This document shows, in pieces, positions 8,679-27,785 of a stretch of DNA of 64,000 nucleotides. Position 1 is the first letter of the stretch. Every line of letters begins with the position of its first letter. This DNA comes from Clostridiaceae bacterium (GTDB lineage Bacteria > Bacillota > Clostridia > Saccharofermentanales > DTU023), in NCBI GenBank assembly GCA_012841015.1, contig DUVN01000023.1, forward strand, positions 60,436 to 124,435, in the 5' to 3' direction. The translations under genes were made by a program, and so were the position numbers. The notes under the pieces are model-generated. The model was not told where the DNA came from. It was given only the letters and a program-made list of their open reading frames with translations, and searched no databases.

Positions 8679-8795
8679 GAACTACGAGCTCGGGACTGCC
8701 TTTTACGCCAAATTCAGATGGATTGTGGTCAAAAATTCCACTGAAACCACAAAGTGTTGATGCTAGCTGTTTTCATAGCATGTAATATGAAAGAA

Positions 8796-8838: not shown

Positions 8839-8939
8839 TTTCCATTTTTCCATATCCTTCCAATCAAAAAGAAGGTGCCTCTTTGCTATGCTACCCCCAA
8901 ACCCATAATTTCCAAGATGGGGATTATCGTTTAACATGC

Positions 8940-10319: not shown

Positions 10320-10620
10320 GTCAACATACAAGGTATGCAACTAGACGAAGCTAAGATCGAGAGCCAAGCTCGCTTTGACGGATATTATGCCACGTTGACC
10401 AATGATAAAGAGTGCACGACCGCAGAGGCCTGTGCGATGTTAGGGCAAATCGAAGAAAGTTTATGTGTGCTTAAGATTGATTTGAGAGGCAGACCTGTTA
10501 AAGAACATTAAACTTCTGTAAAATGCTTAATATCGGCATTACAGGTGTTTTATGCAAACACAAGTCATATACTCAGGAAGAATTACATGATCAGAATAAC
10601 AAGACACAACTGCTGACACT
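10320..10620 (+). pseudogene. IS4/IS1634-like DDE transposase C-terminal remnant
   Basis: Positions 10344-10511 translate to DEAKIESQARFDGYYATLTNDKECTTAEACAMLGQIEESLCVLKIDLRGRPV, resembling the conserved (K/R)FDGYYA...W.IEE.F...K.DL..RPV block. There is no intact ORF of 60 aa or more between 9855 and 11044. Confidence 0.5.
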
Positions 10621-11023
10621 TACCGAAAAGCAAAAGGAGATCTAAGCGCTAAAAGTTAAACTGGGCTAAAAGCATCGCTTCGTAGTCATTGGAAGCAACC
10701 GTATACTCTAAAACTACGGGAAAATAGGTTCAAAGGTTTTTAGGGATCAGCGTCCTAATGACGTAAACAAGGTGGCTCAAAAAGAGATGTGCTGTTTATT
10801 CGGATAGACTTCACATAATACTGAGAATTATGATCGAATCATATCCCCAAACAAACTCTAGACAGCACCTAATCGGTTGCACATGGGATACAATATACGC
10901 CTGTCACTTATTCAAAACCATCTGTGAGCCATGAATCATGATAAATGTCAAGCCTATTATCTTCAAAAAAGCAAAACCGTCCCTCCGTGGTCACGGACGG
11001 CCTTGCAGGTTTCCAGGCTTTAA

Positions 11024-11069
11024 CTGTCAGCCATCTCTTGATCTGTGGTAGAAAAGAGACGGCTGACAG
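11024..11069 (-). terminator. Long hairpin immediately 3' of the lipoprotein gene
   Basis: CTGTCAGCC-A-TCTCTT ... AAGAGA-C-GGCTGACAG pairs over about 15 bp. The downstream U-tract is weak. Confidence 0.4.
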
Positions 11070-11076
11070 TATGTAA

Positions 11077-11691
11077 TCATTTATATTCGTTCAGATCATT
11101 AATTTCCAAGGAATACACTTCATCATCACCATATAAAGACAGCTCAAGCAACAAAGGGGCATTCATATCATCGATTGAGACAGCGTCTTGTACTCCTATG
11201 ATTTGTTCGCCAGGCTTGACTGACGTAAGTATTTTTGTGAGGTCAACTTGCAAAGATAGCACAAACTCCTCAGTCTCAACGCCGTTTTGAAATGCTTTAA
11301 AGCGAACAGTGAATATAGGCCTTGTCTCATCTTTGTCTTTGCCCTCTGTGTTGGTAAAGTCGTATGTTATCCTAAGTGCATCCTTCTCTACCAAAGTGCT
11401 AACGACTTTCAGCTCCGTGATCACAACCTCGAAGCGACCAATTTGTATTGGTTTGCCGATGACAATCGTATGGTCGTCCACTTCTGAACTAGGTTTCTCG
11501 GTCGGCACTTCAGTTGGTTTCTCTGTAGGATCTCCCACTGGTTCTGTCTTTGGTTCTAGTTTTGAATCTTCCGCTTCTCGGCTTGATTCCGACGGCCTAG
11601 GATCGTTGAGATCACCTGGTTTGTTGCAAGCAACTAAAGAAAAAACTATGATCGCAATCAGCAAAAAAACGAAAACTTTGTTACTTTTCAT
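11077..11691 (-). CDS. Lipoprotein with Pro/Glu-rich linker and beta-sandwich (DUF4352/DUF5067-like) domain
   Basis: Signal peptide with lipobox LVAC (MKSNKVFVFLLIAIIVFSLVAC). The domain call is tentative. Confidence 0.7.
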   Translation of the reverse strand: MKSNKVFVFLLIAIIVFSLVACNKPGDLNDPRPSESSREAEDSKLEPKTEPVGDPTEKPTEVPTEKPSSEVDDHTIVIGKPIQIGRFEVVITELKVVSTLVEKDALRITYDFTNTEGKDKDETRPIFTVRFKAFQNGVETEEFVLSLQVDLTKILTSVKPGEQIIGVQDAVSIDDMNAPLLLELSLYGDDEVYSLEINDLNEYK

Positions 11692-11847
11692 TTTTAATCC
11701 TCCGGCTGCATCTAGCCTACTTGTATTTCTTAATGGTAATTCTATCAGTTATCACCATTGATGCGGTGAGCTGGTTAAAATGGAAGTCTCTGCCGCCGAA
11801 GTTCATTCTCGCTCTAAAAAGTCCGGGTGGGAATCAATTGGCGGCAT

Positions 11848-12933
11848 TCATGCGGTCGGGTAGCGTTCTATCGCTTCTTTGAGGAACGCGTCGCCCTCGA
11901 AATAGTTGATACGCATGGCGGCGCGGACGCGCCTGACGGTCTGATCTGCTTTACGGCTTGCGATCTTCGTCGATTCTTCGAGATAGCTGATGACTTCGGG
12001 GAGGCGAGATTCCCAGTAGCGGCGGCGCTCGCGGATTGGCGTAAGCATGTCTTCCAGCACATTTATAAGGAACCGCTTGACCTTGACATCACCTAGACCG
12101 CCGCGGCGGTAATGCGCTTTCATAGCGTCGAGATTCTCGTATTCGGGCAGGAAGCGCGCGAAATGTTCAGTCTTCGAGAAAGCGTCTAGGTAGGTGAAAA
12201 CAGGGTTCCCTTCGACGGTGCCCGGATCTTCCACGCGCAAGTGATTTGGATCGGTGAACATCGACATGACCTTTTTTCGCACTTCTTCCGGCAGATCAGT
12301 CAGGTAGATGCAGTTACCGAGAGATTTGCTCATTTTGGCGGAGCCGTCAAGCCCTGGAAGGCGCATGCCGGCTTCCGTTTCCGGCAACAAAGCTTTTGGC
12401 ATAACGAGCGTCTCGCCGTAGACGGCATTGAACTTGTGTACGATCTCGACACACTGCTCAAGCATGGGGAGCTGATCCTCGCCGACCGGCACGACGGTCG
12501 CGTCAAAAGCCGTGATGTCGGCTGCTTGGCTGATCGGGTAATTGAAAAAGCCGACGGGGATACTTGACTCAAAGCCTCTCATTTTGATTTCCGTCTTGAC
12601 GGTCGGGTTGCGCTGAAGGCGAGCGACTGTGACGAGGTTTGTGTAGTAAAAGCAGAGCTCAGTGAGAGCAGGGACACCCGATTGGATAAAAAGTGCTGTC
12701 TTTTCAGGGTCAAGTCCAGCAGAGAGGTTGTCGAGCGCGACTTCAAGGACATTTTCCCGTATCTTTTCAGGATTCTCTGCATTGTCGGTCAGTGCTTGGG
12801 CATCGGCGATCATGATGTAAATCTCATCGAAAGTGCCTGAATTTTGGAGTTCAACACGCCTGCGCAACGATCCGACGTAGTGGCCGAGATGGAGTCGCCC
12901 TGTTGGACGATCTCCGGTAAGAATAATATTCAT
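11848..12933 (-). CDS. trpS: Tryptophan--tRNA ligase
   Basis: TGRLHLGHY (HIGH-type) and KMSKSLGN motifs, with full-length class-I TrpRS-like sequence. Confidence 0.95.
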
Positions 12934-13310
12934 AAGCGTTTACAAGAATCCTTCCTGTTTGATTTAAATGACTGTTAGCGGCAATTGAGTACCAGCGATG
13001 CTTTATCTCACAGATTAACACATTTGTCTGATATGTAGATGCAAGAGTTGGCAATCATGCGATTTCGGACTCAACCTGATCAGCTCGTCCGATGACGGTT
13101 AGCTAAGATCTATGAACACTTGCGTTGTAAGCGTAACAACGTCCTTTTGTTCGATACCACGTCACAAGAATCAATAATCGTGTGATTTCGGACTCAACCT
13201 GATCAACTCACCCGATGTCGGCTCGTAAGAGTCTACGGTTATACGTTTTGAAGTGCTTATTTTAATTGTTCGTCCGATGTTGCATCGCAAGACCCTATAA
13301 AACAGAACAT
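12934..13310 (-). promoter_or_regulatory. Candidate T-box-type leader with a duplicated Stem-I-like module
   Basis: In gene sense, the module CATCGG(A/G)(C/T)GAG(C/T)TGATCAGGTTGAGTCCGAAATC occurs twice (forward coordinates about 13055-13100 and 13178-13222). It resembles the GAGCUGAUGGUUGGUGCAAAUC distal Stem-I region of B. subtilis tyrS. GCGATG lies near the 5' end, and GUGGUAUCG / GCUGGUACUC elements resemble the T-box core. No clean terminator was found. Confidence 0.35.
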
Positions 13311-13374
13311 TGCGGACTAAGCGTGACCAAATCGGACACGATCATTATGTTGCAAAAGTCTGTGACCTCGCGCT

Positions 13375-14145
13375 TCACGAACTCGGCTTTACTGATTCGT
13401 TACGAATCTTTAGAGCTTGCGCCGGGTCATCCGTTATCAGGGTGTCAATGCCCTGCCGGATCGCATATCGCATAACGCGAGGTGAATTCACTGTCCACAA
13501 GCGGACAGCGATGTTGTGACGCCTACACCGTGAGACAAATCCAGGCACAAACATATTGAGGAAATGCGGATGAAGTCCATCAAGCCCATACTCCAAAGCT
13601 GCGCTCAATGCGCGGTTAGGCCATCTCTTGAAAAGAAATGCACAAGAGAGATCAGGCGCAAGCCGTTTCATCTCGACGACGCTATCAAAATTAAACGAAG
13701 AGACGATAACGCGATCGCGGAGTCTATATTGGTCAATTGCGTAAAGGATTTCCGACTCAATAAGCGGATAAGGAAAGACGCTGTTTTTGATCTCAATATT
13801 GACTGTAAGCGACGTCCAAGCAAACCAGCTTAAGAATTCCTCTAACGAGGGGAATCTCACCTCCGGCGATCCCGGGAACGAGTATCCCGCATTCAGCTCA
13901 GATAGCTGGCGCCAAGTCATATCCTTTATGTTGATATCTATACCTGCCAGACGCCCCAAGTTTTCATCGTGGCAGATGACAAGCTTACCGTCCACAGTTC
14001 TCTGAAGATCAAGCTCAATTCCGTCCGCTCCAAGATCACATGCTGCGCGGAAAGCCGGCATCGTGTTTTCGGGGAATTGCAGTCGTGCGCCGCGATGCGC
14101 GAAGATGGTAGGTTTTATTGTTGGTTCTGTCCTACATGTCCTCAA
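13375..14145 (-). CDS. Glycerophosphodiester phosphodiesterase
   Basis: IFAHRGA..ENT, GADGIELD and ICHDENL are GDPD motifs. Confidence 0.9.
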   Translation of the reverse strand: MRTCRTEPTIKPTIFAHRGARLQFPENTMPAFRAACDLGADGIELDLQRTVDGKLVICHDENLGRLAGIDINIKDMTWRQLSELNAGYSFPGSPEVRFPSLEEFLSWFAWTSLTVNIEIKNSVFPYPLIESEILYAIDQYRLRDRVIVSSFNFDSVVEMKRLAPDLSCAFLFKRWPNRALSAALEYGLDGLHPHFLNMFVPGFVSRCRRHNIAVRLWTVNSPRVMRYAIRQGIDTLITDDPAQALKIRNESVKPSS

Positions 14146-14246
14146 GCGTTGACAACCCTTCTTTTTTAGTATCGCTCATATCCGCAACTCTACACTTTCA
14201 TAAGATTGGATCACTCTTTCTTATCAGTGTTGATCGCATCTGTGCG

Positions 14247-15641
14247 CTACATGTTTTCAAGTGCAGACAATCCTTCCTGATCGGGCTCTTTCTCGTCCGC
14301 AACTTCTCCGTGCTTGACGAACGATGTGCAAAGGAGAGCAAGGCCAAAACAGATGACCGCGTAGATGAATAACGTATTGTAGTTGTCGGTTATGTCACGT
14401 ATCCACCCAAAGAGAATAGGGCTGATGATCGACGCGGAAAACGAGAAGAAATAGTAGTAGCCCGTGAAGCGTCCGATCTTATCATGCGATGCGAGCTCAA
14501 CGACCATAGGGAGCGAATTGATGTTGACGCACGCCCAGCCGATGCCTGCACACGCCAGGAGTGCAATGACGACGATCTGTTTGATCATGACCGATGACAC
14601 ACTCAAGACATCGACACCGAACGCCGTCAGGATAGGATTGATGAAGACCATCGGCATAAGGAAGAGCAAGAGTAACACGAGCCCTGTGACGATCGTCTTC
14701 TTGCGCCCGCGCTTGCTTGCGATCACGCCTGCGGGGAGTGCAAAGGCGACAAACGTCAAAGAGAACGAGGTCAGCATCATCGTTGCCGTTCCTTCACCAA
14801 CGTGTAGCATATTCGTCGCAAAGAGTGTAAAAAAAGTCTCGATGGCGTTGTACGCGCAGAACCAGAAAAAGATTGCCCCCAAAAGCAGGAAAAGACTGCG
14901 TCGTTCAGCGGCTGTCAGTTTACGATCGACACCGCCCATGTCTTTAATTTCCTTAGCATCTTCTTGATCTTTTAAGTAGGTTGCAGCAAACTCCTTTGAC
15001 GTAAGGCGCCTTGTCAGAGATTCGCGCTGGGCACGCCGCCACATGTCAGCGACAGGTTCGCGGACGAACAAAAGCAAACAGACGAGAGCGGCAACCATGA
15101 CAACAGAGCCCATGCCAAAAGGGAGTCTACTCGTTTCGTCTCTTTTTGCAAGGTAACCACCAACGAGAAAGGCGATGATGCTGCCGATTCCGCCCATCAA
15201 GTTGATGAGACCGTTCGCCTTGCTGCGTAAGAGGCGCGGTGTGACGTCAGGCATGAGCGCGATGACGGGCGAGCGCCAGAACGACATAATTAAATTGAAA
15301 CAGATGATGAATCCCATCATGAGCCAAAGTGTTTTAGCCCACGGAATCAAAAAGAAAAAGAGAGCTGAGAGCGGGATACCGACGATAATCCATGGCATCC
15401 GTCGCCCATACCGTGTGAACGTTCTGTCACTCAATGTTCCGACCACCGGTTGAAAAATGATGCCGAATACATTATCGATTGTCATGATAGCGCCGATGAT
15501 TGTCGTGGAGAGCAGGAAGCGCTTCTCAAGAAGGATGGGCACTAAACTGTTATACAGGCTCCAAGCCAAAGAGCTTGCTAAAAAGCCAAAGCCCAATAGT
15601 AGCGTTTTCTTATAATCAAGTTTTCTAGCTGATTTTGACAT
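14247..15641 (-). CDS. MFS transporter (GPH/SLC45-like, 12 TM)
   Basis: Hydrophobic 12-TM profile with a central charged loop. GGAGG lies 5 nt upstream of ATG 15641 (MSKSARK); the track start at 15653 is a GTG inside the SD. Confidence 0.85.
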   Translation of the reverse strand: MSKSARKLDYKKTLLLGFGFLASSLAWSLYNSLVPILLEKRFLLSTTIIGAIMTIDNVFGIIFQPVVGTLSDRTFTRYGRRMPWIIVGIPLSALFFFLIPWAKTLWLMMGFIICFNLIMSFWRSPVIALMPDVTPRLLRSKANGLINLMGGIGSIIAFLVGGYLAKRDETSRLPFGMGSVVMVAALVCLLLFVREPVADMWRRAQRESLTRRLTSKEFAATYLKDQEDAKEIKDMGGVDRKLTAAERRSLFLLLGAIFFWFCAYNAIETFFTLFATNMLHVGEGTATMMLTSFSLTFVAFALPAGVIASKRGRKKTIVTGLVLLLLFLMPMVFINPILTAFGVDVLSVSSVMIKQIVVIALLACAGIGWACVNINSLPMVVELASHDKIGRFTGYYYFFSFSASIISPILFGWIRDITDNYNTLFIYAVICFGLALLCTSFVKHGEVADEKEPDQEGLSALENM

Positions 15642-16065
15642 GTACACCTCCACATATTACGTCTTCAACAATGATCTGCTACAAGACACCGATACGTCCT
15701 TCCGTATCTTCCTTGATTCTGTCGTGAGCAGTCGCATGGCTTCGTTACGGCGCACCTGTTTCCATACAACTCTCAGTGAGCAACCTAAAACTTGATCACT
15801 ACATGGTGGCTCTCTCAACGAATCATCGTCGAGAAGGAAAGTAGGACGCGACCGAAAACGTTGACATCTTGAGCTCATTGTACCAAATGAAATGAGAGGG
15901 CATGACAGCGGCAGGGATTCTTTGCTGTTTCATGTAAGATCTCTGTAAAGAGGTCATTCAAGCCTCATTAACACTGTACTACCGGGGTGCTTCTGCACTC
16001 TAAGTGCTCACAGGGACACATGCAAAGAAGTTGCAGAGCCACGGAACGACTCGGCTTTCATCCAT

Positions 16066-16300
16066 TGATTGCTGATGAATTTGCGAATGATAGGAGCTAA
16101 TAGCTGGACAGATAGCTGATGAATGGACGTCGTCTCTGCGAGATTGCCCTTGTATCGCTTTCAGTCTAAGCAGGTAGTTGATGAAAGGATGTCATTGTTG
16201 CGGGACCGCCCTAGCGTCGTTTGCTGTCTTGGTAGGTAGCTGATGAATGGACGTCGTCGCCGCGAGATCGCAACGATGTGGGTTGTTGTCTAGGAGGGGT
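16066..16300. repeat. Tandem repeat of 62 bp, 3 full units plus 1 partial
   Basis: G(C/T)TGATGAA(T/A)GG starts at 16071 (partial), 16115, 16177 and 16239. The first and third full units are nearly identical. Confidence 0.8.
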
Positions 16301-16316
16301 TCAGTTAGCGGATCAG

Positions 16317-16598
16317 TCAGATAATTTCGACGTTCCATTCCCGAATTTCGCCGTCGCTGTGGTCTTCAATCGTTTTGAGGATGGACTGTTCAAGTTCGCA
16401 CCCGCCAGCTTCCGTCAAGATAACGCCTGCGATACCGAGGCAAAGTGTTTGCTGGGCATCTTGGCAGTCAATTTCCTTGACGGAGATACGATGGCGACGT
16501 GTCAGCCGGTCGATTAAGCTGTACCTGACTTTGCGCTTGTCTTTGAGTGATGTGCTCCACGACAAGTGGATCACAACTTCTATCACAAGTACATGCAT
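16317..16598 (-). CDS. DUF503 (YlxP-like) protein
   Basis: The 93-aa sequence LSWSTSLKDKRKVRYSLIDRL...ISVKEID.QD is characteristic of DUF503. Confidence 0.75.
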   Translation of the reverse strand: MHVLVIEVVIHLSWSTSLKDKRKVRYSLIDRLTRRHRISVKEIDCQDAQQTLCLGIAGVILTEAGGCELEQSILKTIEDHSDGEIREWNVEII

Positions 16599-16694
16599 GG
16601 AATTTTTCTCTCATTCCTCGTCTTGATCTCACGGGCGGCAAAGGTGCGCCGGTCTCCTTTTCCGTCTTGAGCACTGCTGTATGCGAAGCGCTTG

Positions 16695-17540
16695 TTAAAC
16701 GGTCTTCGCAACAGTGTGCGTCTCGAGTTTATATTCCACGGTGACAAGGGAGGCGATCTCACCGGAATCAACGATACGCCCTTCGATAAACAGCCGATTA
16801 TTGTGCTCAACGTCGGGGATAACGTAAAAAATTAGACGCTCAAACAACCTAGCTTCGTTCATAAATTGGACGTGTAGTTTGTGAACGACAAGCTCCTCTA
16901 TTAACGGATCTATAGAAAGATAAGAAGCTGCGGCATCAATGGCAAGCCTCACATAATGTGAGCTGTGTAAATGCGTATTCGTATCGAGGTCACCGAGCTG
17001 TACTTGGTAGCGCATAACTTCACGTTCTTCAGGATTGTCGAGAACAGATTTCAGTCGCGGGATGTTATCCATGTTTCCGACGGCAGAATCGTTCACCTTC
17101 GCCATTTTTTCAAGATCGACGACAGATTTCGGTCGTAACGGTCTATGCTCATCAAGTGTACACAAGATCCATTCAGATGACGCCGCCCCGAAATAGTTGG
17201 ACTCATCGATGGAATTTCGGTAGAAGCGGTTTTCACGGAACAATCGGATACCGTGTGTTCCTCTAGGCCACGTGTCGACAACAAATGTTTCCTCTGCAGT
17301 TGGAAGCTCGCCCGTAAAAGAAAACGTGTTTGAGAGGAGTATCCAGCAGAAACCGCGTGCGCGAAGGTCTTCCGCTTTGCTGTCAAATCGACCACAGCTG
17401 TGGTCGTCACTGTCCTGTGCGAGATCCATCAAACGGTGAAGATGCACATGACAGTGCGGATTGCAGTCCTGAAAAAGAATTCTGTAACGCGCGATCGTGT
17501 GTCCATTGTCTAAGTGAGTTATTTGCTCATGTGATTGCAT
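16695..17540 (-). CDS. Acyl-ACP thioesterase family protein
   Basis: 281 aa with a double hot-dog layout. RYRILFQDCNPHCHVHLHRLMDLAQD ... GFCWILLSN resembles PF01643 members (recognition only). Confidence 0.7.
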   Translation of the reverse strand: MQSHEQITHLDNGHTIARYRILFQDCNPHCHVHLHRLMDLAQDSDDHSCGRFDSKAEDLRARGFCWILLSNTFSFTGELPTAEETFVVDTWPRGTHGIRLFRENRFYRNSIDESNYFGAASSEWILCTLDEHRPLRPKSVVDLEKMAKVNDSAVGNMDNIPRLKSVLDNPEEREVMRYQVQLGDLDTNTHLHSSHYVRLAIDAAASYLSIDPLIEELVVHKLHVQFMNEARLFERLIFYVIPDVEHNNRLFIEGRIVDSGEIASLVTVEYKLETHTVAKTV

Positions 17541-17854
17541 AACTGGCTATTGTCCTTTCGGATATGTGTTTTCGTCTCATATTTGCAAGCGTTGCAGCTT
17601 AAATGCAAAGCCGAACGCGGCTTCAGTCTAGCATCAGAATACGAAGCAATTATGACGAGAAAAAGCTTTTTCGTCACATTAATAGATTGCTCACATTTGA
17701 GTGCGATAATATCATCTATGTAATGAGCTCATCTGAGCTGGCGCTGACCTTACGAGTCGTCAACGGAGACTGACGTATCGTGTAGCTTACTAAATGACAA
17801 AGCTAGGAGAGCGCAAGGGGCTGGAGAGTTCTTCCGTACGAGGAGGTAGAAGAG

Positions 17855-20800
17855 ATGTTTGACATAGAAAAATTTGCGGATGAGTTAAGAAAAAATCCGG
17901 GTTACCGGACTATTTTCAAACAAATGACCCATTATACTGAAGAAGATGCCATTGAAATGTACACCCCAGAAGGTGTTGTGAAGATAACATATCCCGAAAT
18001 GCTCGGAATGGTTGACGAGACGGCGCGACGCGTATCAGCCTTTTTCGAGACGAATGAGATGAAGCGCGTCGTCGAAGCAAAGACGCGAACACTCAATCCA
18101 GATGATCCCGGTAGGCGCGGATGGGTCGGCCTAAAAATACAAAACAGTCCGAATTTTGCATGCCTCTTCTGGGGTGTGATGGCTTCGGGGCATCCCGTTG
18201 TCCTGATCGATTCGCGTGCGTCAGATCCTTTGACCGACATGCTTGCAAAAGAAACAGGCATCGTCGTGCTGATTGCGGATGAAGCTCCCAAACGTGAAAC
18301 ACCTTATCCAATTGTGACGGCTAATCGTTTCGTTCCCGATTGGCGCGATCCTCAAACAGTGCAGACATACGCTAGAAAAGAGGGAGACGTGACGCGCGAA
18401 AGGGCGGAAGATCGTCCCGGCTGGGCAGGTCATATTACCCTTTGCACGAGCGGTACGACTGGACTATCGCGCTGCTACGTGCACGATGATAACGGAATTA
18501 CTGAGCAGTATATGTGTCTGATCCCTTTGTCTCAAGAGACAGACCGTTGGGTACGTACGGGTGTCCGAGAAAAAACGCTCGCTTTCATCCCATGGCATCA
18601 CGTTTTTGGATTTATCGTCTGTTTCATTTTTCCGCAGATCATGGGTAATACGATGGTGATTCCGGCGAAGCCGTCACCAGAGGCTATTGTACAGGCTTGT
18701 CAGGGAAGTGGCGTGACGCAGCTCGTCGCGATACCTGCCGTGTGGAACGGTATCGCACGGATCGTCAAAAAACGTTTCGTCGAAGCGACGGGCAAATCGG
18801 AAGAAGAGTTCGATGCCATGATTGACCTTTCTCTTTCCTACCAGAGGGCAGGTGTTGACTTGCCCCCCATGGTCGCAGGCATTCTTAGCGTGATTCGCAG
18901 TCAATTATTTGGTGACACACTTTATCTCGGTGTCAGCGGCGGGGGATATATTTTGCCTGAGTCGCTCCGCACAATCAATGGTCTCGGATATTATCTCGTC
19001 AATGGTTACGGCATGACAGAGATCGGTATTTTCTCCGTGGTAAACAGTGAGGATGTTGAGATCCGCCTTGACGGGAATGTCGGACGTCCTTTCTATCCCG
19101 GTTCGTTGCAGATTGATCTCTTGGATGGAGTATCAGAAGAAGAGGATACAGACGGACACGGAGAACTGCTCGTTCGCAATGACGTTGTATTTGTCGGCAC
19201 GCTGAAAGGCGGGCGTTTCTTCAAGCGCGATCACAGAGAGTGGTTCCGGACAGGCGATATTGGCCGATACCAGAACGGTTACACTTATTTGGATGGTCGC
19301 GTGAAAGATATTATCCTGAAAGCCGACGGCGAAAACATTTACCCCGATGAGCTGGAGGGATCATATGAAACGATTCCCGGTGTGCAACGCCTTGTTATCT
19401 TTGGCTTGTCTGACGGGCATTATGATGAGATAGCCCTCATGATCGAGCCGGTTTCCGGTGCCGATCCAAGTACGTTCGCAGAAATGGTCGCTGATATCAA
19501 TGCCACGGTACCGATGAGCCAACAAATTCAGCGCTTATTTGTATCGGAAAAGCCCCTTGAGCTCTCCGCTTCGGCAAAAGTACGGAGAGGTCCTGTCGCC
19601 GAGGCTGTTGCAAATGGTGAATGGCCACTGCAGGAATACCCTCTTAATCCTCAGCAAGTTATTGTTGACGAAGAGATGCCGACAGAAATTGAAAAGCAAG
19701 TCTCTACTTATTTCATTCCGGAGCTCGCGGCAGATCCCGCTTTCTTTGAAGTGCGCAAATCAGTGCAGGAAATGGTTGCTGAAGTGCTGACGATCCCTAT
19801 CGAAAAAGTTAAACCGTCGTCATGGTTCGCCCAAGATCTTGGCGGTGATAGCCTGCAGAGCATTTCGTTGCTCACGTATGCGGAAGAAAAATATGCTTTG
19901 ACAATTGATGAGCGACTTTTTAACCGTGACCTGACAGTCAACGATATCGCGGCACTCGTCTACAGAAGAATAGGCGGCGAGTTCGCAGATGAGTCGCGCA
20001 CCATTGATAGCGCATACGGCGAGAGGCCCGTTCAACGTATTAAATCCTTTGAAGAGACTCCGGAGTTTAAAGCTTTTATGGCGCGCCGTGAGTCGCTCGC
20101 ATCAGCCATCGAAGCATTCGGGAATCCGTATTTTGTCGCACAAGACTCTTCGCTTCGTGATGTTTCTTACATTGGCGACAGGAAAATGATCAATTTCGCC
20201 TCTTACAATTACGTTGGCATGTCAGGCGATCCAGAAGTGAATGAGGCTGCAATTGAGGCCGTAAAACAGTACGGGACTTCTGCCAGTGGAAGCCGTCTGT
20301 TGGCAGGTGAGAAAACGATCCATCAGAAATTAGAGAAAAAGCTCGCAAACTGGAAGGGAACAGAGGACGCCATCGCGCTTGTAGGTGGACACTCTACGAA
20401 CGTCACCTTCATAGGCAACTTCTGTTCGGAGCAAGACCTTATCTTATACGATGTCCTGATTCATAATTCGATTACAGAGGGTATCCGTATGTCGCTTGCT
20501 GATGCGAGACCGTTCCCGCACAACGACGTCCGTTCCCTCGAAAACATTCTCGAGAGCCGTCGTGATCGCTACGAGAAAGTTTTGATCGTTATTGAAGGTG
20601 CATACAGTATGGACGGTGATGTCGCTCCTATTCCCGAGTTCGTCCGAATTAAGAAACAATATGATTGCTTTCTGATGGTCGACGAGGCACATTCGATGTT
20701 AGTCCTCGGTAAGACAGGACGCGGAGTAGATGAGCATTTCGGCATTGATCCGAAAGAGATTGATATCCACATGGGCACGCTGTCGAAAGGGTTCGGAACG

Positions 20801-21256
20801 TGTGGCGGCTATCTGGCAGGCAACCATAACCTGATCGAGTACCTCCGTTATAATTTGCCAGGCTTCGTCTTTTCTGTCGGCATCAGCCCACCGCTCGCTG
20901 CCGCCGTTGTGAAAGCGATTGAGATCATGGAGAGGGACAACAGTCGTGTTGAAAGATTGCACCGGAATATCGCTACCTTTATGCGCGAAGCGAAGCGCTA
21001 CGATTTTGATACGTGTCTTGCTGGCGAAACAGCCATTACGCCCATCTTAATCGGATCCGATGAACTTGCCTTTATGCTTTCAAAACAACTTGAAGAAGAC
21101 GGTATCATTGTTCCTCCTGCCGTCTTCCCGGCCGTGGCACGCGGACAGGCGAGACTGCGTTTCTGCTTGACAAGTGAACACACGGAGGAGCAAATTGTAT
21201 ATGCCCTTGAGTGTCTCCACAAGAGACTGGAACCACTGCTAGGCATGTTAAAATAA
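17855..21256 (+). CDS. Tri-domain fusion: fatty-acyl-AMP ligase/adenylation domain, carrier protein (PP-binding), and alpha-oxoamine synthase (class-II PLP aminotransferase)
   Basis: The adenylation domain has TSGTTG (T198), GYGMTE, TGDIGR and a terminal K. The carrier has GGDSL with Ser666 (nt 19850). The AOS domain has SGSRLL, DEAHS and GTLSKGFG with Lys978 (nt 20786). GAGGAGG precedes the ATG. Confidence 0.9.
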   Translation: MFDIEKFADELRKNPGYRTIFKQMTHYTEEDAIEMYTPEGVVKITYPEMLGMVDETARRVSAFFETNEMKRVVEAKTRTLNPDDPGRRGWVGLKIQNSPNFACLFWGVMASGHPVVLIDSRASDPLTDMLAKETGIVVLIADEAPKRETPYPIVTANRFVPDWRDPQTVQTYARKEGDVTRERAEDRPGWAGHITLCTSGTTGLSRCYVHDDNGITEQYMCLIPLSQETDRWVRTGVREKTLAFIPWHHVFGFIVCFIFPQIMGNTMVIPAKPSPEAIVQACQGSGVTQLVAIPAVWNGIARIVKKRFVEATGKSEEEFDAMIDLSLSYQRAGVDLPPMVAGILSVIRSQLFGDTLYLGVSGGGYILPESLRTINGLGYYLVNGYGMTEIGIFSVVNSEDVEIRLDGNVGRPFYPGSLQIDLLDGVSEEEDTDGHGELLVRNDVVFVGTLKGGRFFKRDHREWFRTGDIGRYQNGYTYLDGRVKDIILKADGENIYPDELEGSYETIPGVQRLVIFGLSDGHYDEIALMIEPVSGADPSTFAEMVADINATVPMSQQIQRLFVSEKPLELSASAKVRRGPVAEAVANGEWPLQEYPLNPQQVIVDEEMPTEIEKQVSTYFIPELAADPAFFEVRKSVQEMVAEVLTIPIEKVKPSSWFAQDLGGDSLQSISLLTYAEEKYALTIDERLFNRDLTVNDIAALVYRRIGGEFADESRTIDSAYGERPVQRIKSFEETPEFKAFMARRESLASAIEAFGNPYFVAQDSSLRDVSYIGDRKMINFASYNYVGMSGDPEVNEAAIEAVKQYGTSASGSRLLAGEKTIHQKLEKKLANWKGTEDAIALVGGHSTNVTFIGNFCSEQDLILYDVLIHNSITEGIRMSLADARPFPHNDVRSLENILESRRDRYEKVLIVIEGAYSMDGDVAPIPEFVRIKKQYDCFLMVDEAHSMLVLGKTGRGVDEHFGIDPKEIDIHMGTLSKGFGTCGGYLAGNHNLIEYLRYNLPGFVFSVGISPPLAAAVVKAIEIMERDNSRVERLHRNIATFMREAKRYDFDTCLAGETAITPILIGSDELAFMLSKQLEEDGIIVPPAVFPAVARGQARLRFCLTSEHTEEQIVYALECLHKRLEPLLGMLK

Positions 21257-21489
21257 GTCGTACGTATGCACACTAAAAGTTACTGAGAGGATAGCGGATG
21301 CGGTACTGTCAATTATATTCAGTGCCAAGGATTCACACGCACTTTGTGCTTTGAAGTGTGATGCAAGGAATGAAGCGATACCCTCAACGGCCTCGATCTA
21401 TTGTCATAGGTGCTTATGGGAGGAGTAAAAATGTTGTCACGGTACTACAATCCGGATAGACTTTAAGGTACAAGGAATGGAGTATTAGC

Positions 21490-21834
21490 GTGAGAAGAGA
21501 AGCAACATACACTATTTACTGGTTCTTTTCGCTTGCTCCGTTTCTGACTGCCGTTCCGCTTTTCTTTCTCATGCCAGAAAAGGTGCCTGCCCGCATATTG
21601 GCGCTCACAATGATTGAGCGCCACGGGACGAGGTGGGAAGTCTTTCTCATTCCACTGAGCTGGTTGATTGTCTCTGTCGTCATCGACGTCATTTTTCGCA
21701 TGATTGAACGATCTTCGGGCTCTGTGTTACCTATGCGGATGGCCGTGACGCGCATTTTAATGGCTATTATTTTCTGTACTCTTGCGATTTATATGGAACT
21801 GATTCTTTATCGTGCTGCGATGATCTATATTTAG
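21490..21834 (+). CDS. Small 3-4 TM membrane protein (DUF1648-like)
   Basis: Hydrophobic profile. MPEKVPAR....RHGTRWEVFLIPL resembles the DUF1648 N-terminal pattern. GTG start. Confidence 0.45.
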   Translation: MRREATYTIYWFFSLAPFLTAVPLFFLMPEKVPARILALTMIERHGTRWEVFLIPLSWLIVSVVIDVIFRMIERSSGSVLPMRMAVTRILMAIIFCTLAIYMELILYRAAMIYI

Positions 21835-21914
21835 CGACCTATCTTCAAAATCAGCGCGCGACACTGCCATTCCTCGATCAATTTTGAGAAAGTCTGCACT
21901 CTAGACGCCCCGTG

Positions 21915-21943
21915 TTGCTACAATCTGGGCGTCATTTCATAAT
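21915..21943 (+). promoter_or_regulatory. Sigma-A-like promoter embedded in a 7-bp inverted repeat
   Basis: TTGCTA-17 nt-CATAAT. GACGCCC (21904-21910) and GGGCGTC (21927-21933) bracket the -35. Confidence 0.4.
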
Positions 21944-22284
21944 CTCCAAAGAATAAAACTGAGCTTCCTTTTGGGGTTACAAGTGGCGGCGGGGACGCGG
22001 GGGCAGGCAAAGAACCGCTGATGTTGAATTGTTTCTTGCCATACCTGATCGTGCATACGGTGGCTAAGACCGTTGTTATATTATCTGAAAAAGCGGGAGT
22101 CTCACCTGATCACGGGCTGCCGAGGGGTTCAACGCCTTGGCCGTCGCGTCATCCAGTTCGTCTCAACGGACCGCGGGCGGCTGAGGGATTGGAGAGGGAG
22201 CTTTGCCGAGTTAACAACTTAATGACACACCCATTTGAGAGCTGTAGTATCATGGATTTATCGAAAAAGAGGGAAAGGTTGTCT

Positions 22285-23673
22285 ATGTTCAGCGATACAT
22301 TATTTGAATACAAACGATATTTTATTGACGGTGCGGAAAGTGAGTTGCGCGCTCAGCATAATACAGGAAGGCGTGTCTCTTTTTTAGATGGTCAGATGAT
22401 CGGTAATGTTCGCCAAGATTACAAAGGTGTGAGTGCGCGTGTTCGACGCGGTGGTCTTTACGGCTTCTCTTCAAAGGGTGACTACACGCGACGCTCCGTG
22501 GAAAGCGTATTAAAGGAAGCGTCGAACAATGCACTTTTTCTCGAACAACACGTCAGCCCGACCAAAGGTCGACTTTCGCCAGTGCCGATTGGCACGGTGA
22601 CGCGAGAGGAGTCCGTCAACGATGTGGAGCAGTCTTTTTATATCGAGCTCTGCCGTTCGATGGACGCGTACATCGTTGCTCATTGCCCGAACATTATCAG
22701 TCGACGAGTCAGCGCCTTTAGCGATTCGGTTGAGAAGGTCATCACTGTTTCGAACGGATATGATGCGCACATGGTCACACCGCGCAGCTACATCAGTGTC
22801 ATGTTGACAGCCGAGTCAGCGACGGGCACTCCCGTTGACGTGATGGCAGCGGTCGGTGGTTTTGGCACAATCGACAATCATTTCGTTGATCTTAATGAGG
22901 CGAAAGCGAAGGTTGACAAGCTATACGAGCAACTGCAGCAAAAGTGTGAAGGCATCTATGCGAAGGCGGGCGAGGCCACGTGTATTCTATCAGGTCATAT
23001 GGCGGGCATGCTTGCCCATGAAGCCGTAGGTCATACGGTGGAAGCCGATCTTGTTCAGAGCGGGTCAGTGTCGGCGTACTTGCTCGGCAAACAGGTAGCC
23101 TCCGAGAAAGTCTCGATGGTCGATTATGCGCATACTGTCTTCGGCGAGCCTGCGCCTCTTCCAGTCTATGTCGACGATGAGGGAGTGAAGGCGGAAGACG
23201 CCGTGTTGATTCAAGACGGCATCTTAACGGAGTATATGAACAATCGCCAGTCAGCCGATCTTTACAGTATGACGCCTCGCGGCAACGCACGTGCGTGGCT
23301 ATTCTCCGATGAGCCTCTCATCCGTATGCGCAATACGGCGATTGTGCCGGGAGACGATAAGCTCGAGGATATGATCGCTTCGGTAGACGACGGCTATTAC
23401 TTAGTTGATTCCGGCAATGGACAAGCCGATATGACGGGAGAATTCATGTTCGGCGTGACGATCGGATATGAAATCAAAAAGGGAAAGCTCGGGCGTGCCA
23501 TACTCGATACAACCATTTCGGGTGTTGCCTTTGAGATGCTGAAAACGGTCGATATGGTCTCCGATGAGTTGGAGTGGGTGAGCGCCGGTTTTTGTGGAAA
23601 GAAGCAACCGATGGCAGTAGGTCTCGGTGGCCCGCATATCCGCTGCAGGTTGACGATGGGAGGCAAAGCGTAA
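22285..23673 (+). CDS. tldD: TldD-family metalloprotease
   Basis: HEAVGHTVEAD (HExxxH) and the GGxxD..G C-terminal beta domain. ATG 22285 is preceded by AGAGGGAAAGG. The track ORF start at 22021 is an unsupported 88-codon extension. Confidence 0.9.
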   Translation: MFSDTLFEYKRYFIDGAESELRAQHNTGRRVSFLDGQMIGNVRQDYKGVSARVRRGGLYGFSSKGDYTRRSVESVLKEASNNALFLEQHVSPTKGRLSPVPIGTVTREESVNDVEQSFYIELCRSMDAYIVAHCPNIISRRVSAFSDSVEKVITVSNGYDAHMVTPRSYISVMLTAESATGTPVDVMAAVGGFGTIDNHFVDLNEAKAKVDKLYEQLQQKCEGIYAKAGEATCILSGHMAGMLAHEAVGHTVEADLVQSGSVSAYLLGKQVASEKVSMVDYAHTVFGEPAPLPVYVDDEGVKAEDAVLIQDGILTEYMNNRQSADLYSMTPRGNARAWLFSDEPLIRMRNTAIVPGDDKLEDMIASVDDGYYLVDSGNGQADMTGEFMFGVTIGYEIKKGKLGRAILDTTISGVAFEMLKTVDMVSDELEWVSAGFCGKKQPMAVGLGGPHIRCRLTMGGKA

Positions 23674-23800
23674 TGTGTCGAGTAAAACACTTGTTTATGG
23701 ATCGGCATTTCTCCCGTTCGCCACAATCTGCCAGAGTGATAGCGGGAAAGCAGTTTATGTACCTAAATGTACCAGATAGACAAAAGAGGGGAGTCATTGT

Positions 23801-25102
23801 ATGAGATCGATGGAAAAACTAGCTCAATTTGGTTTATCTGAGCTGCAAGAGGGCCGTGCTGATCAGGCCGTCTGCTCTGTGTCTCGCTCTGTGATGCGTG
23901 AATTGACGGCAGAGTGGGGTGAGTTTAGCTTATATCGAACGATTTTTGACGATTCCGTCGGCTTTATGGCGACAATCGGTGGAAGGCGTGGAGTTCTGTC
24001 ACAGAATTCCGTCGACGAAGATGCCATTCGAGAGGGAGCTTCCAATTGTTTAAAGTCGGCAGGAGCTGCAGATCCTGACGAGGCGTGGCAGCTCGCTCCA
24101 CCAGTGCCGGAGCAGAACTTCGAGTCTGGGCCGCTCACATGTGACGAAGAAAAGTTGTTTGAACGATGTGAGGAGCTTTTGGCAGATATCCGCGCGCGTT
24201 TTCCTCTCATAAGCGTCGGGTCACTCGTGGCAACGCATGTTCTAAGGGAGGGTGTGAGCCTCTTTTCTACAGGGAGTCGATTTTTCTCACGGCGCGGCGC
24301 CTACTCTGTCAGCCTGTTATTCAACGCGACGGAACAAGAAGCGACATCATCGTTCTTTTCGACATCGGTGGAAATACTCGATCTTGAGACTCCCTTTATT
24401 GAGCTCGGGAGTTTCGAGGCTGACCTTGCCTCCATTTCAAGACAAGTTTTTACGAAGCCGATGGACGACAAGTTTACAGGGACGGTGTTGCTGACACCAG
24501 ATTGTTTCGGCGATCTGCTCGCAACGTGCATCGGGACATACGCATCGGACGGCGTTATTCTAGACGGCACAAGCCTTTGGCTTGAAAAGATCGATCAACA
24601 AGTTGCGAGCGATAAACTGAGCCTGAAACTTGCCCCGTTACATCCTGATGTCGTCGCAGGGCAACGCTTCACGTCGGAAGGCTATATCGCAGAAGATTAC
24701 GACATGATCGAGCAGGGCATTCTGAGACAGTTCCGTCTCAGCGATTATGCCGCCCGCAAAACAGGCTATAAGAGGTCGCCTAATTCTTCTCTCGGCAGTT
24801 TCATTGTAGAACCTGGCGAGGAGCTGCTAGAGACGATGATTCGAGGTATTGATCGTGGACTCTTCGTCGCGCGGTTATCGGCAGGATCGCCCAGTGCATC
24901 GGGTGATTTCTCTGGTGTTGCGAAGAACTGTTTTCTGATTGAAAAGGGCGAAATTAAAGAGGCGTTGAGTGAGACAATGATCAATGGAAATTTGGCAGAA
25001 TTTCTTATGAACATTAAATCGCTCTCGAAAGAAATCGTAAAAGATGGTAGTTCCGTGTTGCCTTGGGTTACAATTGAAAGTGTCGGGATCGCAGGGAAGT
25101 AA
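23801..25102 (+). CDS. pmbA: PmbA/TldE-family protein (partner of TldD, lacks HExxxH)
   Basis: TldD/PmbA fold-family sequence (..SGDFSGVAKNCFLIEKGEI..). AGAGGGGAG SD. Confidence 0.85.
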   Translation: MRSMEKLAQFGLSELQEGRADQAVCSVSRSVMRELTAEWGEFSLYRTIFDDSVGFMATIGGRRGVLSQNSVDEDAIREGASNCLKSAGAADPDEAWQLAPPVPEQNFESGPLTCDEEKLFERCEELLADIRARFPLISVGSLVATHVLREGVSLFSTGSRFFSRRGAYSVSLLFNATEQEATSSFFSTSVEILDLETPFIELGSFEADLASISRQVFTKPMDDKFTGTVLLTPDCFGDLLATCIGTYASDGVILDGTSLWLEKIDQQVASDKLSLKLAPLHPDVVAGQRFTSEGYIAEDYDMIEQGILRQFRLSDYAARKTGYKRSPNSSLGSFIVEPGEELLETMIRGIDRGLFVARLSAGSPSASGDFSGVAKNCFLIEKGEIKEALSETMINGNLAEFLMNIKSLSKEIVKDGSSVLPWVTIESVGIAGK

Positions 25103-26045: not shown

Positions 26046-26201
26046 ATGTCAGATAAAAAGAGAGTTTTTACATTGCCAACACGCCAACTGATTGATGCCG
26101 ACAGGCGCGACGGTTGTGGCGAATGCCAGACGTCTTGCCAATCGGCCTGTAAAACGTCGTGCGGTGTCGCTAATCAAGTGTGTGAGCAAGAGCGCGAATA
26201 A
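26046..26201 (+). CDS. SCIFF (six-cysteines-in-forty-five) ranthipeptide precursor
   Basis: MSDKKRVFTLPTRQLIDADRRDGCGECQTSCQSACKTSCGVANQVCEQERE contains the invariant GCGECQTSCQSACKTSC core. GGGAGGAAG SD. The track start at 25995 is too early. Confidence 0.9.
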   Translation: MSDKKRVFTLPTRQLIDADRRDGCGECQTSCQSACKTSCGVANQVCEQERE

Positions 26202-26285: not shown

Positions 26286-27785
26286 ATGGTACATCAGTAT
26301 AAACTGAACGGCTTCAACATCGTGTTGGATGTCGATAGCGGTAGCATTCATCTCGTAGACGATCTCGTCTACGAGATTATTATGTTGTTCGAAAAAGCTG
26401 ATCGAGATGGTATCATTCGCGCTCTATCGGATCGTTTTGATTCTGACGACATTCGTTCAGCGCTTGATGAAGTACAAGAGCTCGTCAAACAACAAAAATT
26501 GTTTTCACAAGCAGATCACGCGGCGCGACTTTTTGAAGGACGCGAGTACGCGGTAGGCGCGGTGTCGCGGACAACGAAAGAGCGAGGCGCGGTTGAGAAG
26601 CGACGGACAGCTAAAGAGGAGTGTTCGACAGCAGACGGACGTCTCGACGCGCATGTCAATACGTCGAAGTATCATTGCTGGAATGAGAATGTCATCAAGG
26701 CGCTCTGCCTCAATGTCGCCCATACGTGTAATCTAGACTGCTCCTATTGTTTTGCCGGACAGGGCAAGTACAAAGGAGAGCAGGCGCTGATGGTGGTTGA
26801 AACGGGAAGAAAGGCGATCGACTTTCTTATCGAACATTCGGGATCACGACGAAACTTGGAAGTTGATTTTTTCGGTGGCGAACCGCTCCTCAACTGGCAG
26901 ATGGTCAAAGACGTTGTTGCTTACGCGCGTTCCATCGAAGAGCAATACGGCAAGCGCTTTCGTTTTACGCTGACGACGAACGGCGTGCTCATCGACGATG
27001 ACGTGATCGACTTTACAAATAAGGAGATGCACAATGTCGTCTTAAGTTTAGACGGCCGTCCTCATGTGCACGATCGCTTCCGTGTCGATATTGGTGGGAA
27101 TGGCAGTTATGCCCGTGTCGTTCCGAAGTTTCTTGAGCTCGTTCGCAGGCGTGATCAAGGCACGTATTACGTCAGAGGTACGTACACACATCTCAATGTC
27201 GATTTTCTGAACGATATCCTCCACATGCTCGACCTCGGGTTTCGCGAAATCAGCATGGAACCTGTCGTGTGCCGACCTGAGGAGCCATATGCGCTGACGG
27301 ATGAGGACATGCCGATCATCATGCGGCAGTACGAAGAGCTTGCAGAGGAAATACTGCGCCGCGAGCGTGAGGGGGACCCCTTTCAGTTTTACCATTTCAT
27401 GATTGATCTCGAACACGGACCCTGCATTTACAAGCGGATCATAGGCTGCGGCGCGGGAACAGAATATCTTGCCGTCACGCCTTCGGGTGATCTCTACCCC
27501 TGTCATCAGCTCGTCGACGATCCGTCTTTTCGAATTGGGAATCTCGAGGACGGCGTGACGGAGCATGACCTTCAGGACGCGTTTCGAACGTGCAATGTCT
27601 TCGCCCGTGAAGCGTGTCGTGCTTGCTGGGCGAAACTCTATTGCGCCGGCGGCTGTGCCGCGAACGCTTTCCACATGTCGGGCAGCCTTTTAGGAACGGA
27701 TGCCTTCGGGTGTGAACTTTTCAAAAAGCGTATCGAATGCGCCATCATGATAAAAGTCGCCAAGGCAGTTGCCTCGGCGACATGA
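26286..27785 (+). CDS. SCIFF radical-SAM/SPASM thioether-forming maturase
   Basis: CNLDCSYCF radical-SAM motif, a C-terminal SPASM Cys cluster (CRACWAKLYCAGGCAANAF), an N-terminal RRE-like segment, and a position directly 3' of the SCIFF gene. Confidence 0.9.
   Translation: MVHQYKLNGFNIVLDVDSGSIHLVDDLVYEIIMLFEKADRDGIIRALSDRFDSDDIRSALDEVQELVKQQKLFSQADHAARLFEGREYAVGAVSRTTKERGAVEKRRTAKEECSTADGRLDAHVNTSKYHCWNENVIKALCLNVAHTCNLDCSYCFAGQGKYKGEQALMVVETGRKAIDFLIEHSGSRRNLEVDFFGGEPLLNWQMVKDVVAYARSIEEQYGKRFRFTLTTNGVLIDDDVIDFTNKEMHNVVLSLDGRPHVHDRFRVDIGGNGSYARVVPKFLELVRRRDQGTYYVRGTYTHLNVDFLNDILHMLDLGFREISMEPVVCRPEEPYALTDEDMPIIMRQYEELAEEILRREREGDPFQFYHFMIDLEHGPCIYKRIIGCGAGTEYLAVTPSGDLYPCHQLVDDPSFRIGNLEDGVTEHDLQDAFRTCNVFAREACRACWAKLYCAGGCAANAFHMSGSLLGTDAFGCELFKKRIECAIMIKVAKAVASAT

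Follow-up and report, generated by a model that had tools for sequence, protein, structure and literature searches.

The 64-kb stretch of contig DUVN01000023.1 analyzed here (hereafter, the window) belongs to a Clostridiaceae bacterium and encodes, on the forward strand at positions 17855 to 21256 (including the stop codon), a 1133-aa protein that combines an adenylate-forming (A) domain, a phosphopantetheine carrier domain, and a pyridoxal phosphate (PLP)-dependent alpha-oxoamine synthase (AOS) domain. This fusion protein is probably a self-loading, CoA-independent AOS. An earlier note on the window had proposed that a carboxylic acid is activated, tethered to the carrier, and Claisen-condensed with an amino acid; the intact domains and catalytic residues support this general chemistry, which can be predicted with high confidence. 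That the substrates are, specifically, a long-chain acid and serine is, in our judgment, evenly balanced.

In the proposed mechanism, the A domain, a member of the ANL superfamily, would adenylate a free carboxylic acid (a fatty acid of medium or long chain is the most likely) and transfer the acyl group to the phosphopantetheine attached to Ser666 in the protein's own carrier. The PLP domain, through Lys978, would bind a small amino acid as an external aldimine; L-serine is the likeliest candidate, with alanine or glycine as further options. The tethered acyl thioester would then undergo decarboxylative Claisen condensation with it, yielding a 2-amino-3-keto-alkane, a 3-ketosphinganine-like precursor of a long-chain base. 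In many relatives, an adjacent KdsR-like short-chain dehydrogenase/reductase (SDR) would reduce the ketone to an amino alcohol; in the organism studied here, the reductase is not linked to the fusion; its gene may reside at another genomic site or be missing. In the close clade alone, the free fatty acid may come from fatty-acid synthesis through an enzyme of the acyl-acyl carrier protein (ACP) thioesterase family. To our knowledge, Firmicutes generally lack long-chain acyl-CoA pools, and built-in activation with a private carrier would make sense for that reason. A broader and distinctly more tentative proposal is that anaerobic Bacillota (Saccharofermentanales, Christensenellales, Oscillospiraceae, and some Clostridium isolates), together with some Treponema and Bacteroidales, make sphingoid bases via such a single-polypeptide, CoA-independent synthase, usually with a KdsR-like reductase.

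Domain architecture and family placement

The open reading frame (ORF) of the fusion starts with an ATG codon and has a strong ribosome-binding site, GAGGAGG, 7 nt upstream. Pfam searches return three domains above the cutoffs: AMP-binding (PF00501; residues 91 to 447, E value of 1e-28, 100.6 bits), PP-binding (PF00550; residues 637 to 702, E value of 9e-10, 39.2 bits versus a cutoff of 20.8), and Aminotran_1_2 (PF00155; residues 777 to 1119, E value of 6e-44, 151 bits), confirming the three-domain fusion described in the earlier note. The motifs and residue numbers quoted there are all correct, and most of the motif residues are invariant in an alignment of the window protein with 32 full-length homologs (33 sequences in total), to which the statements on invariance in the fusion refer. 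The invariant positions include, in the A domain, T198 to T202 of motif A3, G384, G386, T388, and E389 of A5, D468 of A7, R482, K484, and G492 to N494 of A8, and K575 of A10; in the carrier, Ser666 of the GGDSL motif; and in the AOS domain, His870, Asp943, His946, Lys978, and Arg1102. The AlphaFold (AF2) model built from the same alignment has a mean pLDDT of 78.7 and consists of three folded domains, with low-confidence linkers at residues 599 to 607 and 710 to 746.

The same architecture is found well beyond the window. The locus was recovered from the metagenome of a biogas fermenter, and metagenomes of digesters, sludge, and bioreactors contain it as well; contigs X9 (20 kb) and X15 (13.6 kb), assembled in two other studies, span positions 16000 to 22000 with 68 substitutions and no indels. 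In protein databases, 118 clusters carry all three domains in one chain. They include two isolates, Clostridium thermarum and Clostridium sp. 19966, as well as metagenome-assembled genomes (MAGs) of Saccharofermentanales, Christensenellales, Oscillospiraceae, Treponema, and Prevotellaceae. A plasmid search returned relatives of the AOS domain only and no full-length fusion. Four Tissierellia/Clostridia MAGs (loci L034, L037, L040, and L043) encode a stand-alone AOS of 415 to 440 aa, ~62% identical to the fused domain and nested in the fusion clade, with no A domain or carrier found within 8 kb of these genes. Such nesting indicates that both fusion and fission of the loading module occurred in this family.

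The A domain (residues 1 to 598; positions 17855 to 19648, forward strand) contains the motifs of the ANL superfamily: TSGTTG (A3, residues 198 to 203), GYGxTE, here GYGMTE (A5, 384 to 389), TGD (A7, 466 to 468), GRxKD...GENIYP (A8, 482 to 498), and the A10 lysine (Lys575). Its best solved relatives are fatty acyl-CoA synthetases, in particular FadD13 (E value of 8e-24), whereas the fatty acyl-AMP ligase (FAAL) FadD32 gives a weak match (5.6e-6) limited to a 46-residue stretch (residues 459 to 504). FAALs are characterized by an insertion of ~20 residues, located between A5 and the hinge, that prevents the protein from adopting the CoA-ligation conformation (PMC11837247). This insertion is absent from the window protein, because its alignment with FadD13 (residues 363 to 531 with FadD13 residues 292 to 459) runs from A5 through A8 without a large gap and with equal A5-to-A7 spacing, leaving no room for it. 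The FAAL label used in the earlier note was therefore dropped, and membership in the FAAL family is rejected. Between A4 and A5, the domain carries ~43 extra residues, a family-specific insertion at approximately residues 294 to 350, which is modeled as three helices (294 to 312, 316 to 332, and 338 to 350) in a domain with a pLDDT of ~90. Foldseek searches with the full-length model return top matches that all come from the AOS domain, none of them informative on the class of the A domain. Given the fused carrier, the A domain is likely to function as an acyl-carrier ligase, i.e., it is predicted to act in a FAAL- or acyl-ACP synthetase-like manner without belonging to the FAALs. We take the A4 motif HHVFGF and the small A5 residues G384 and G386 to fit an acyl or aryl acid larger than acetate, rather than amino-acid or acetate activation.

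The A domain is followed by the carrier domain (residues 610 to 706; positions 19682 to 19972, forward strand), whose assignment rests on the PF00550 match, the GGDSL motif with the invariant Ser666 (codon at 19850 to 19852), and predicted helices at residues 628 to 645, 666 to 680, and 695 to 706 of the model.

The AOS domain (residues 747 to 1133; positions 20093 to 21253, forward strand) belongs to the AOS family of fold-type I PLP enzymes. It matches PF00155, and its five invariant residues, namely, the catalytic Schiff-base Lys978 (codon at 20786 to 20788), the stacking His870, Asp943 and His946 for PLP binding, and the C-terminal Arg1102 for binding of the amino-acid carboxylate, align with those of the Sphingobacterium multivorum serine palmitoyltransferase (SmSPT; SPT), the Thermus thermophilus enzyme ThAOS, BioF, and KBL. 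Foldseek aligns it to ThAOS and SmSPT with TM scores of 0.90 to 0.93 (0.92 to 0.93 for SmSPT). Among solved structures, ThAOS ranks first (248 bits), followed by SmSPT (234 bits), LCB2/SPTLC2 (~210 bits), KBL (198 bits), the Sphingomonas SPT (~190 bits), BioF and cysteate acyltransferase (179 bits each), ALAS (176 bits), and CqsA (98 bits). The domain falls short of the NCBIfam cutoffs for KBL (304 versus 460 and 245 versus 493 bits), for CqsA-type enzymes (173.8 versus 428 bits), and for a BioF/KBL-related subfamily (326 versus 535 bits).

The motifs SYNY(V/L)G, GSR, DEAHS, and GTLSKxxGxCGGY are shared with SPT or LCB2 and are absent from KBL, ThAOS, and BioF. They suggest serine as the substrate, or at least a pocket that is not restricted to glycine, and are to be read, at the level of sequence, as resemblance to SPT rather than membership in it. 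In a neighbor-joining tree with five references (ThAOS, KBL, BioF, SmSPT, and LCB2a; the Sphingomonas SPT, ALAS, and CqsA are not part of it), which does not allow fine placement, the window domain groups with further carrier-linked AOS domains, those of planctomycete A-ACP-AOS proteins, cyanobacterial ACP-AOS proteins, and one ketosynthase-acyltransferase (KS-AT)-ACP-AOS protein, apart from all five references.

The planctomycete proteins (loci L049 to L078, from Pirellulaceae and other Planctomycetota) are A-ACP-AOS chains of ~1145 aa whose AOS domain is ~50% identical to that of the window protein and whose adenylating domain is different, scoring ~40 bits against the A-domain profile of the family, versus 500 to 750 bits within the family. 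The shared AOS and the different A domain suggest that the loader was recruited independently.

Genomic context of the fusion

The surroundings of the fusion gene were compared in 80 related loci from species-representative genomes (numbered here with the prefix L), with the flanking ORFs clustered; ~85 loci were checked for biotin genes. In distant relatives, the recurrent neighbor is a classical SDR (Pfam adh_short). It lies -31 to +99 nt from the AOS gene in 17 of the 47 loci of the clade (18 with L021, in which the SDR gene overlaps the start of the fusion) and almost always on the same strand. The pair is present in C. thermarum, Clostridium sp. 19966, and a Treponema MAG, and an SDR gene also directly adjoins the stand-alone AOS gene in L034 and L037, both from Tissierellia, and lies ~2 kb off in L043. 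The 3-ketodihydrosphingosine reductase model KdsR (NF049977) is the top NCBIfam match for 10 of 11 of these SDRs, with full-length coverage and scores of 159 to 349 bits, which stay under the equivalog cutoff of 400; the highest scores are those of C. thermarum (348.6 bits) and Clostridium sp. 19966 (319.5 bits). The reference activity of this family is the reduction of 3-ketosphinganine by BT_0972 of Bacteroides thetaiotaomicron (PMC9278070). The pairing of an AOS with a KdsR-like SDR supports a sphinganine-type pathway for the family, and the gene logic of its conserved unit is, judging by gene content, that of sphinganine synthesis. The sphingoid-type product suggested in the earlier note gains evidence from this association. 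A catabolic pair of the KBL/threonine dehydrogenase type was considered for the AOS-SDR module and set aside: the SDR is classical and KdsR-like, not of the threonine dehydrogenase type, and a KBL role would need neither an adenylating domain nor a carrier.

In the window itself, no SDR and no bioA, bioB, bioC, or bioD gene was found. As the earlier note had stated, the window has no ketoreductase, N-acyltransferase, or biotin genes, and it also lacks head-group genes. The conclusion on the product drawn there from the missing reductase is weak: a reductase usually accompanies the family, and here its gene may just not be linked to the fusion. What ties the window clade to the SDR-linked clades is an overall identity of 40 to 45% and an identity of 60 to 66% in the AOS domain.

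Genes for DegV/FakB-like fatty acid-binding proteins are found near the AOS gene in three loci, L027 (positions 11200 to 12159, directly downstream of the fusion), L052, and L034, and hint at free fatty acids as the substrate.

Two loci carry additional biosynthetic genes. In an uncultured Mageeibacillus MAG (L003; fusion 69% identical), a class I S-adenosylmethionine (SAM) methyltransferase gene (9627 to 10256, forward strand) is located between the fusion and the homolog of the 114-aa ORF described below, beginning 3 nt past the stop codon of the fusion; it possibly encodes a tailoring step. The Bacillus tropicus plasmid pBEMB20-2 (L092, positions 7565 to 16396) encodes a glycosyltransferase, an ACP-AOS-like protein 42% identical to the window AOS domain, a SAM methyltransferase, an ABC exporter, a ketosynthase, and a phosphopantetheinyl transferase. 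This cluster, found on plasmids of the Bacillus cereus group, looks like an uncharacterized amino-lipid or glycolipid gene cluster.

On the opposite strand, 314 bp from the fusion gene (intergenic region 17541 to 17854), lies the gene for a 281-aa protein of the acyl-ACP thioesterase (double hot-dog) family (positions 16695 to 17540), as the earlier note had recognized. It matches Pfam 4HBT_2 with 42.3 bits (cutoff of 25.5), and both halves of the acyl-ACP_TE family stay under their cutoffs (PF01643, N-terminal, 20.7 versus 23.7 bits; PF20791, C-terminal, 19.5 versus 21 bits). A profile built from 12 homologs retrieves only acyl-ACP thioesterases from the PDB, namely, 2OWN (2.6e-9, residues 18 to 238), followed by 2ESS and 4GAK. 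The DLDTNTH motif (D-x-N-x-H; D184, D186, N188, and H190) and the downstream Glu229 are invariant in its homologs. The AF2 model from the 12 homologs (pLDDT of 48) is too poor for a fold search. With 14 relatives in protein databases, the thioesterase represents a narrow, divergent lineage.

A role of the thioesterase as the feeder of free fatty acid is possible, falling somewhat short of probable. The two genes adjoin each other in all nine loci of the close clade (L001 to L003 and L081 to L086), whose fusions are 63 to 86% identical, while genes farther out vary. Their divergent promoters share conserved palindromes: in an alignment of six orthologous intergenic regions, a block at 17653 to 17712 contains the palindrome TGACGA-N12-TCGTCA, the repeat CTCAC-N6-GTGnG, and an extended -10-like element, TGnGATAAT, facing the fusion gene. 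This block is kept in five of the six loci and only partially in L001. We infer promoter and operator roles for it, which are compatible with coregulation; it is possibly an operator.

The alternative, likewise tenable without reaching the level of the probable, is that the thioesterase does not feed the fusion and is an unrelated syntenic neighbor, or else an editor that clears misloaded acyl groups from the carrier, and that the fusion takes exogenous or Fak-derived fatty acids. No thioesterase of this type is found within ~8 kb of the fusion in the more distant (~40% identical) loci, so that these relatives evidently work without it, and the DegV/FakB-like proteins beside some fusions point to handling of free fatty acids. 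The strict pairing within the close clade, the lineage-specific divergence of the thioesterase, and the conserved palindromes speak against this alternative. The description of the two genes in the earlier note as a self-contained route is unsupported or overstated, the pairing being confined to the close clade, where shared ancestry alone could explain it.

Known parallels and competing explanations

By analogy, the closest functional parallel of the fusion is the start of sphingolipid synthesis in Caulobacter and Rhodobacteria, where SPT works with a dedicated ACP that is loaded by a dedicated acyl-ACP synthetase (PMC9386255); the fusion would be this trio collapsed into one chain. In both cases, the same three functions follow in the same logical order, and the AOS-family enzyme takes an acyl-carrier thioester rather than acyl-CoA. 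However, the trio consists of three separate proteins in Proteobacteria, whereas the fusion is one polypeptide found in anaerobic Bacillota and other hosts, and its AOS domain fails the curated SPT models. The closest pathway logic, again by analogy, is that of Bacteroides SPT with its BT_0972-type reductase (PMC9278070; NF047600 and NF049977), which is matched by the pair of AOS and classical SDR in relatives of the window protein, by a fold nearly superimposable on SmSPT, and by the shared SPT-type motifs. In contrast to the stand-alone SPT of Bacteroidota, the fusion has a built-in acyl donor, its family scores below the cutoffs for both partners (305 versus 640 bits for SPT and at most 349 versus 400 bits for KdsR), and the window has no reductase.

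Three further systems share single features with the fusion. The promiscuous ThAOS (PDB 7POA; PMC10230504) is the best match in sequence and structure (35 to 38% identity) and uses the same PLP-dependent Claisen chemistry; unlike the fusion, it is a stand-alone, acyl-CoA-using enzyme of the KBL-like group that lacks the SYNY, GSR, and DEAHS motifs. An A-carrier-PLP layout has been listed for Microscilla marina and Blastopirellula marina in a survey of PLP domains in proteins resembling nonribosomal peptide synthetases (NRPS) and polyketide synthases (PKS), in which a Synechococcus "AMP-binding enzyme" was modeled on SmSPT and no product was assigned (Milano et al. 2013; PMC3870968). In these A-carrier-AOS and carrier-AOS proteins, as in the ACP-SerT proteins TamD and PigH, the substrate of the AOS is an acyl group tethered to a carrier. 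The planctomycete representatives differ from the window family in their unrelated A domain, and TamD and PigH (PMC4698589) differ in acting on pyrrolyl-ketoacyl intermediates inside large clusters. Finally, the FAAL-ACP loading didomains that occur in natural-product pathways (PMC11837247) also fuse an adenylating domain to a carrier and transfer the acyl group from acyl-AMP to phosphopantetheine, not to CoA. They differ from the window protein, whose A domain has no FAAL-specific insertion and is nearer to FadD13 than to FadD32, and which is followed by no PKS or NRPS. We found no characterized member of the A-ACP-AOS enzymes in the literature, where the layout is listed only in the 2013 domain survey, and no report on long-chain bases from these Clostridia; the earlier note likewise knew of no characterized product of this architecture in Clostridia-like bacteria.

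Several observations weigh against the proposal that the fusion is a CoA-independent synthase of a long-chain base. The A domain is very divergent and, searched alone, remains far below every NCBIfam cutoff, with a generic long-chain fatty-acid CoA ligase as the best match (118 versus 476 bits). Acid specificity may differ between clades, since distant members share ~29% identity in the A domain versus ~60% in the AOS domain. For the AOS domain, the highest NCBIfam score is that of the BioF model TIGR00858 (346.8 versus a cutoff of 426.45 bits), the SPT equivalogs NF047600, NF047599, and NF047603 are not reached (305.1 versus 640, 269 versus 500, and 220.9 versus 670 bits), and identity to any reference AOS is only 30 to 38%. 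No KdsR-like gene was found near the fusion in the window and the close clade, and neither N-acyltransferases nor head-group enzymes are recurrent neighbors of the fusion across the loci. The link to the thioesterase could be plain synteny within one lineage, and the metatranscriptome of the source study gave no informative coverage. Rfam searches of the window at gathering thresholds returned no match, and those of the 5' region of the fusion returned only a chance-level match to GcvB; with no riboswitch or T-box recognized, RNA elements provide no hint at the amino-acid substrate.

According to a competing but unlikely explanation, the fusion does not make a membrane-type long-chain base; its product would be a secondary metabolite or a small signal that diffuses, either a CAI-1-like ketone with an amino or hydroxy group or an alpha-aminoketone dimerizing to a pyrazine, made from a short- or medium-chain acid and alanine, glycine, or aminobutyrate. 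It would fit a window without reductase, N-acyltransferase, and head-group genes, a patchy distribution across phyla, as for an accessory trait, a carrier motif (GGDSL) that is peptidyl carrier protein-like, and a fast-evolving A domain that suggests variable acids. Carrier-linked AOS proteins are also known from natural-product clusters, such as the Bacillus plasmid cluster and those with TamD/PigH-type ACP-AOS (PMC4698589). However, the AOS domain is far from CqsA in both NCBIfam and PDB searches, the usual partner of the family most resembles a 3-ketosphinganine reductase, and neighbors related to fatty acids are present, with the acyl-ACP thioesterase in the window and DegV elsewhere. No cognate sensor kinase accompanies the fusion, and the ABC exporter genes in the vicinity of some loci are merely isolated ones.

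A role in biotin synthesis is very improbable. The A domain would load pimelate on the carrier, and the AOS domain would act as BioF to form 8-amino-7-oxononanoate. This explanation draws on the top rank of TIGR00858, on the label "8-amino-7-oxononanoate synthase/acyl carrier protein" that some sources attach to homologs, and on the natural occurrence of BioW-BioF fusions (PMC9544090). The score is nevertheless below the bioF cutoff, Escherichia coli BioF, with only 31% identity, falls outside the clade of the window domain, and the A domain is a member of the ANL superfamily rather than of the BioW family. No bioA, bioB, or bioC gene occurs in the ~85 loci or in the window, the sole related find being one BioD-like match in a single planctomycete locus, and the recurrent KdsR-like ketoreductase has no role in biotin synthesis. 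The BioF assignment is rejected on score, tree, and gene context; nesting of the AOS domain within BioF, which the earlier note had named as a possible refutation, is not seen.

The artifact that the earlier note had likewise considered, an assembly error or frameshift joining separate genes, has a negligible probability despite the split forms that occur elsewhere (stand-alone AOS genes for 415 to 477 aa and ACP-AOS genes for 514 to 528 aa) and is ruled out by the independent contigs, which cover the whole gene with substitutions only, and the 118 single-chain clusters, which include isolate genomes, with the AF2 model, in which short flexible linkers connect three folded domains, pointing the same way.

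Among bacteria, the synthesis of sphingolipids is well established for Bacteroidota, several Proteobacteria, and myxobacteria, and in the gut and rumen it is usually credited to Bacteroidota. Were the synthesis of sphinganine-like bases by the fusion family to hold, it would represent yet another independent way of carrying out the first steps of sphingolipid synthesis, in which an SPT-like enzyme with its own activator and carrier neatly bypasses the missing acyl-CoA pool. Sphingolipid-like lipids in digesters, rumen, and gut would then not come only from the recognized producers, and many uncultured Clostridia would join the producers of host-active lipids. The fusion would also offer a compact one- or two-gene tool for converting free fatty acids to long-chain amino-ketones or amino-alcohols without CoA and, for structural work, a natural example of substrate channeling that links an ANL domain and a carrier with a PLP enzyme. 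The question is directly testable because cultured carriers exist (C. thermarum and Clostridium sp. 19966).

Other features of the window

Downstream of the fusion, on the same strand, positions 21490 to 21834 encode a predicted membrane protein of 114 aa, which has homologs in L002, L003, L081, and L082 and gives no match in Pfam and NCBIfam scans. Downstream of the thioesterase gene, on its strand, are the genes for a DUF503 protein (16317 to 16598), a small ORF (15657 to 15878), an MFS transporter (14247 to 15653), and a glycerophosphodiester phosphodiesterase (GDPD; 13375 to 14145), with the named families assigned by Pfam and NCBIfam. In the close clade, the 114-aa ORF and the fusion occupy one strand, and the thioesterase, DUF503, small ORF, MFS, GDPD, and tryptophanyl-tRNA synthetase (TrpRS) genes occupy the other; the order of the genes at 13375 to 16598 is also found in L081, L085, and L086. 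Membership of the genes at 13375 to 16598 in the pathway is uncertain.

A TldD/PmbA metalloprotease pair is encoded downstream of the locus (22021 to 25102, forward strand), its TldD-like protein carrying an extra N-terminal extension of ~100 residues; nothing suggests a link between this pair and the fusion. Farther downstream, a SCIFF-type six-cysteine peptide containing GCGECQTSCQSACKTSCGVANQVCEQ (26046 to 26201, forward strand) directly precedes the gene for its radical SAM/SPASM maturase (26286 to 27785, forward strand; TIGR03974, 689 bits versus a cutoff of 425).

In the upstream part of the window, two same-frame ORFs at 4654 to 7401 (forward strand), an Fe-S/molybdopterin N-terminal part and a molybdopterin oxidoreductase, are split by a single in-frame TGA codon at 5707 to 5709 in the context DHCART*HAPTVAGL. 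Together, they look more like a formate dehydrogenase with a selenocysteine residue than like a disrupted gene. Genes for FdhD and a MobA-like protein are located just upstream (3032 to 4537). The region from 8000 to 12000 has a G+C content of 0.43 to 0.44, versus ~0.50 elsewhere, and contains the genes for a PD-(D/E)XK-family transposase (8940 to 9854) and a DUF5067 protein; it is possibly a small insertion.

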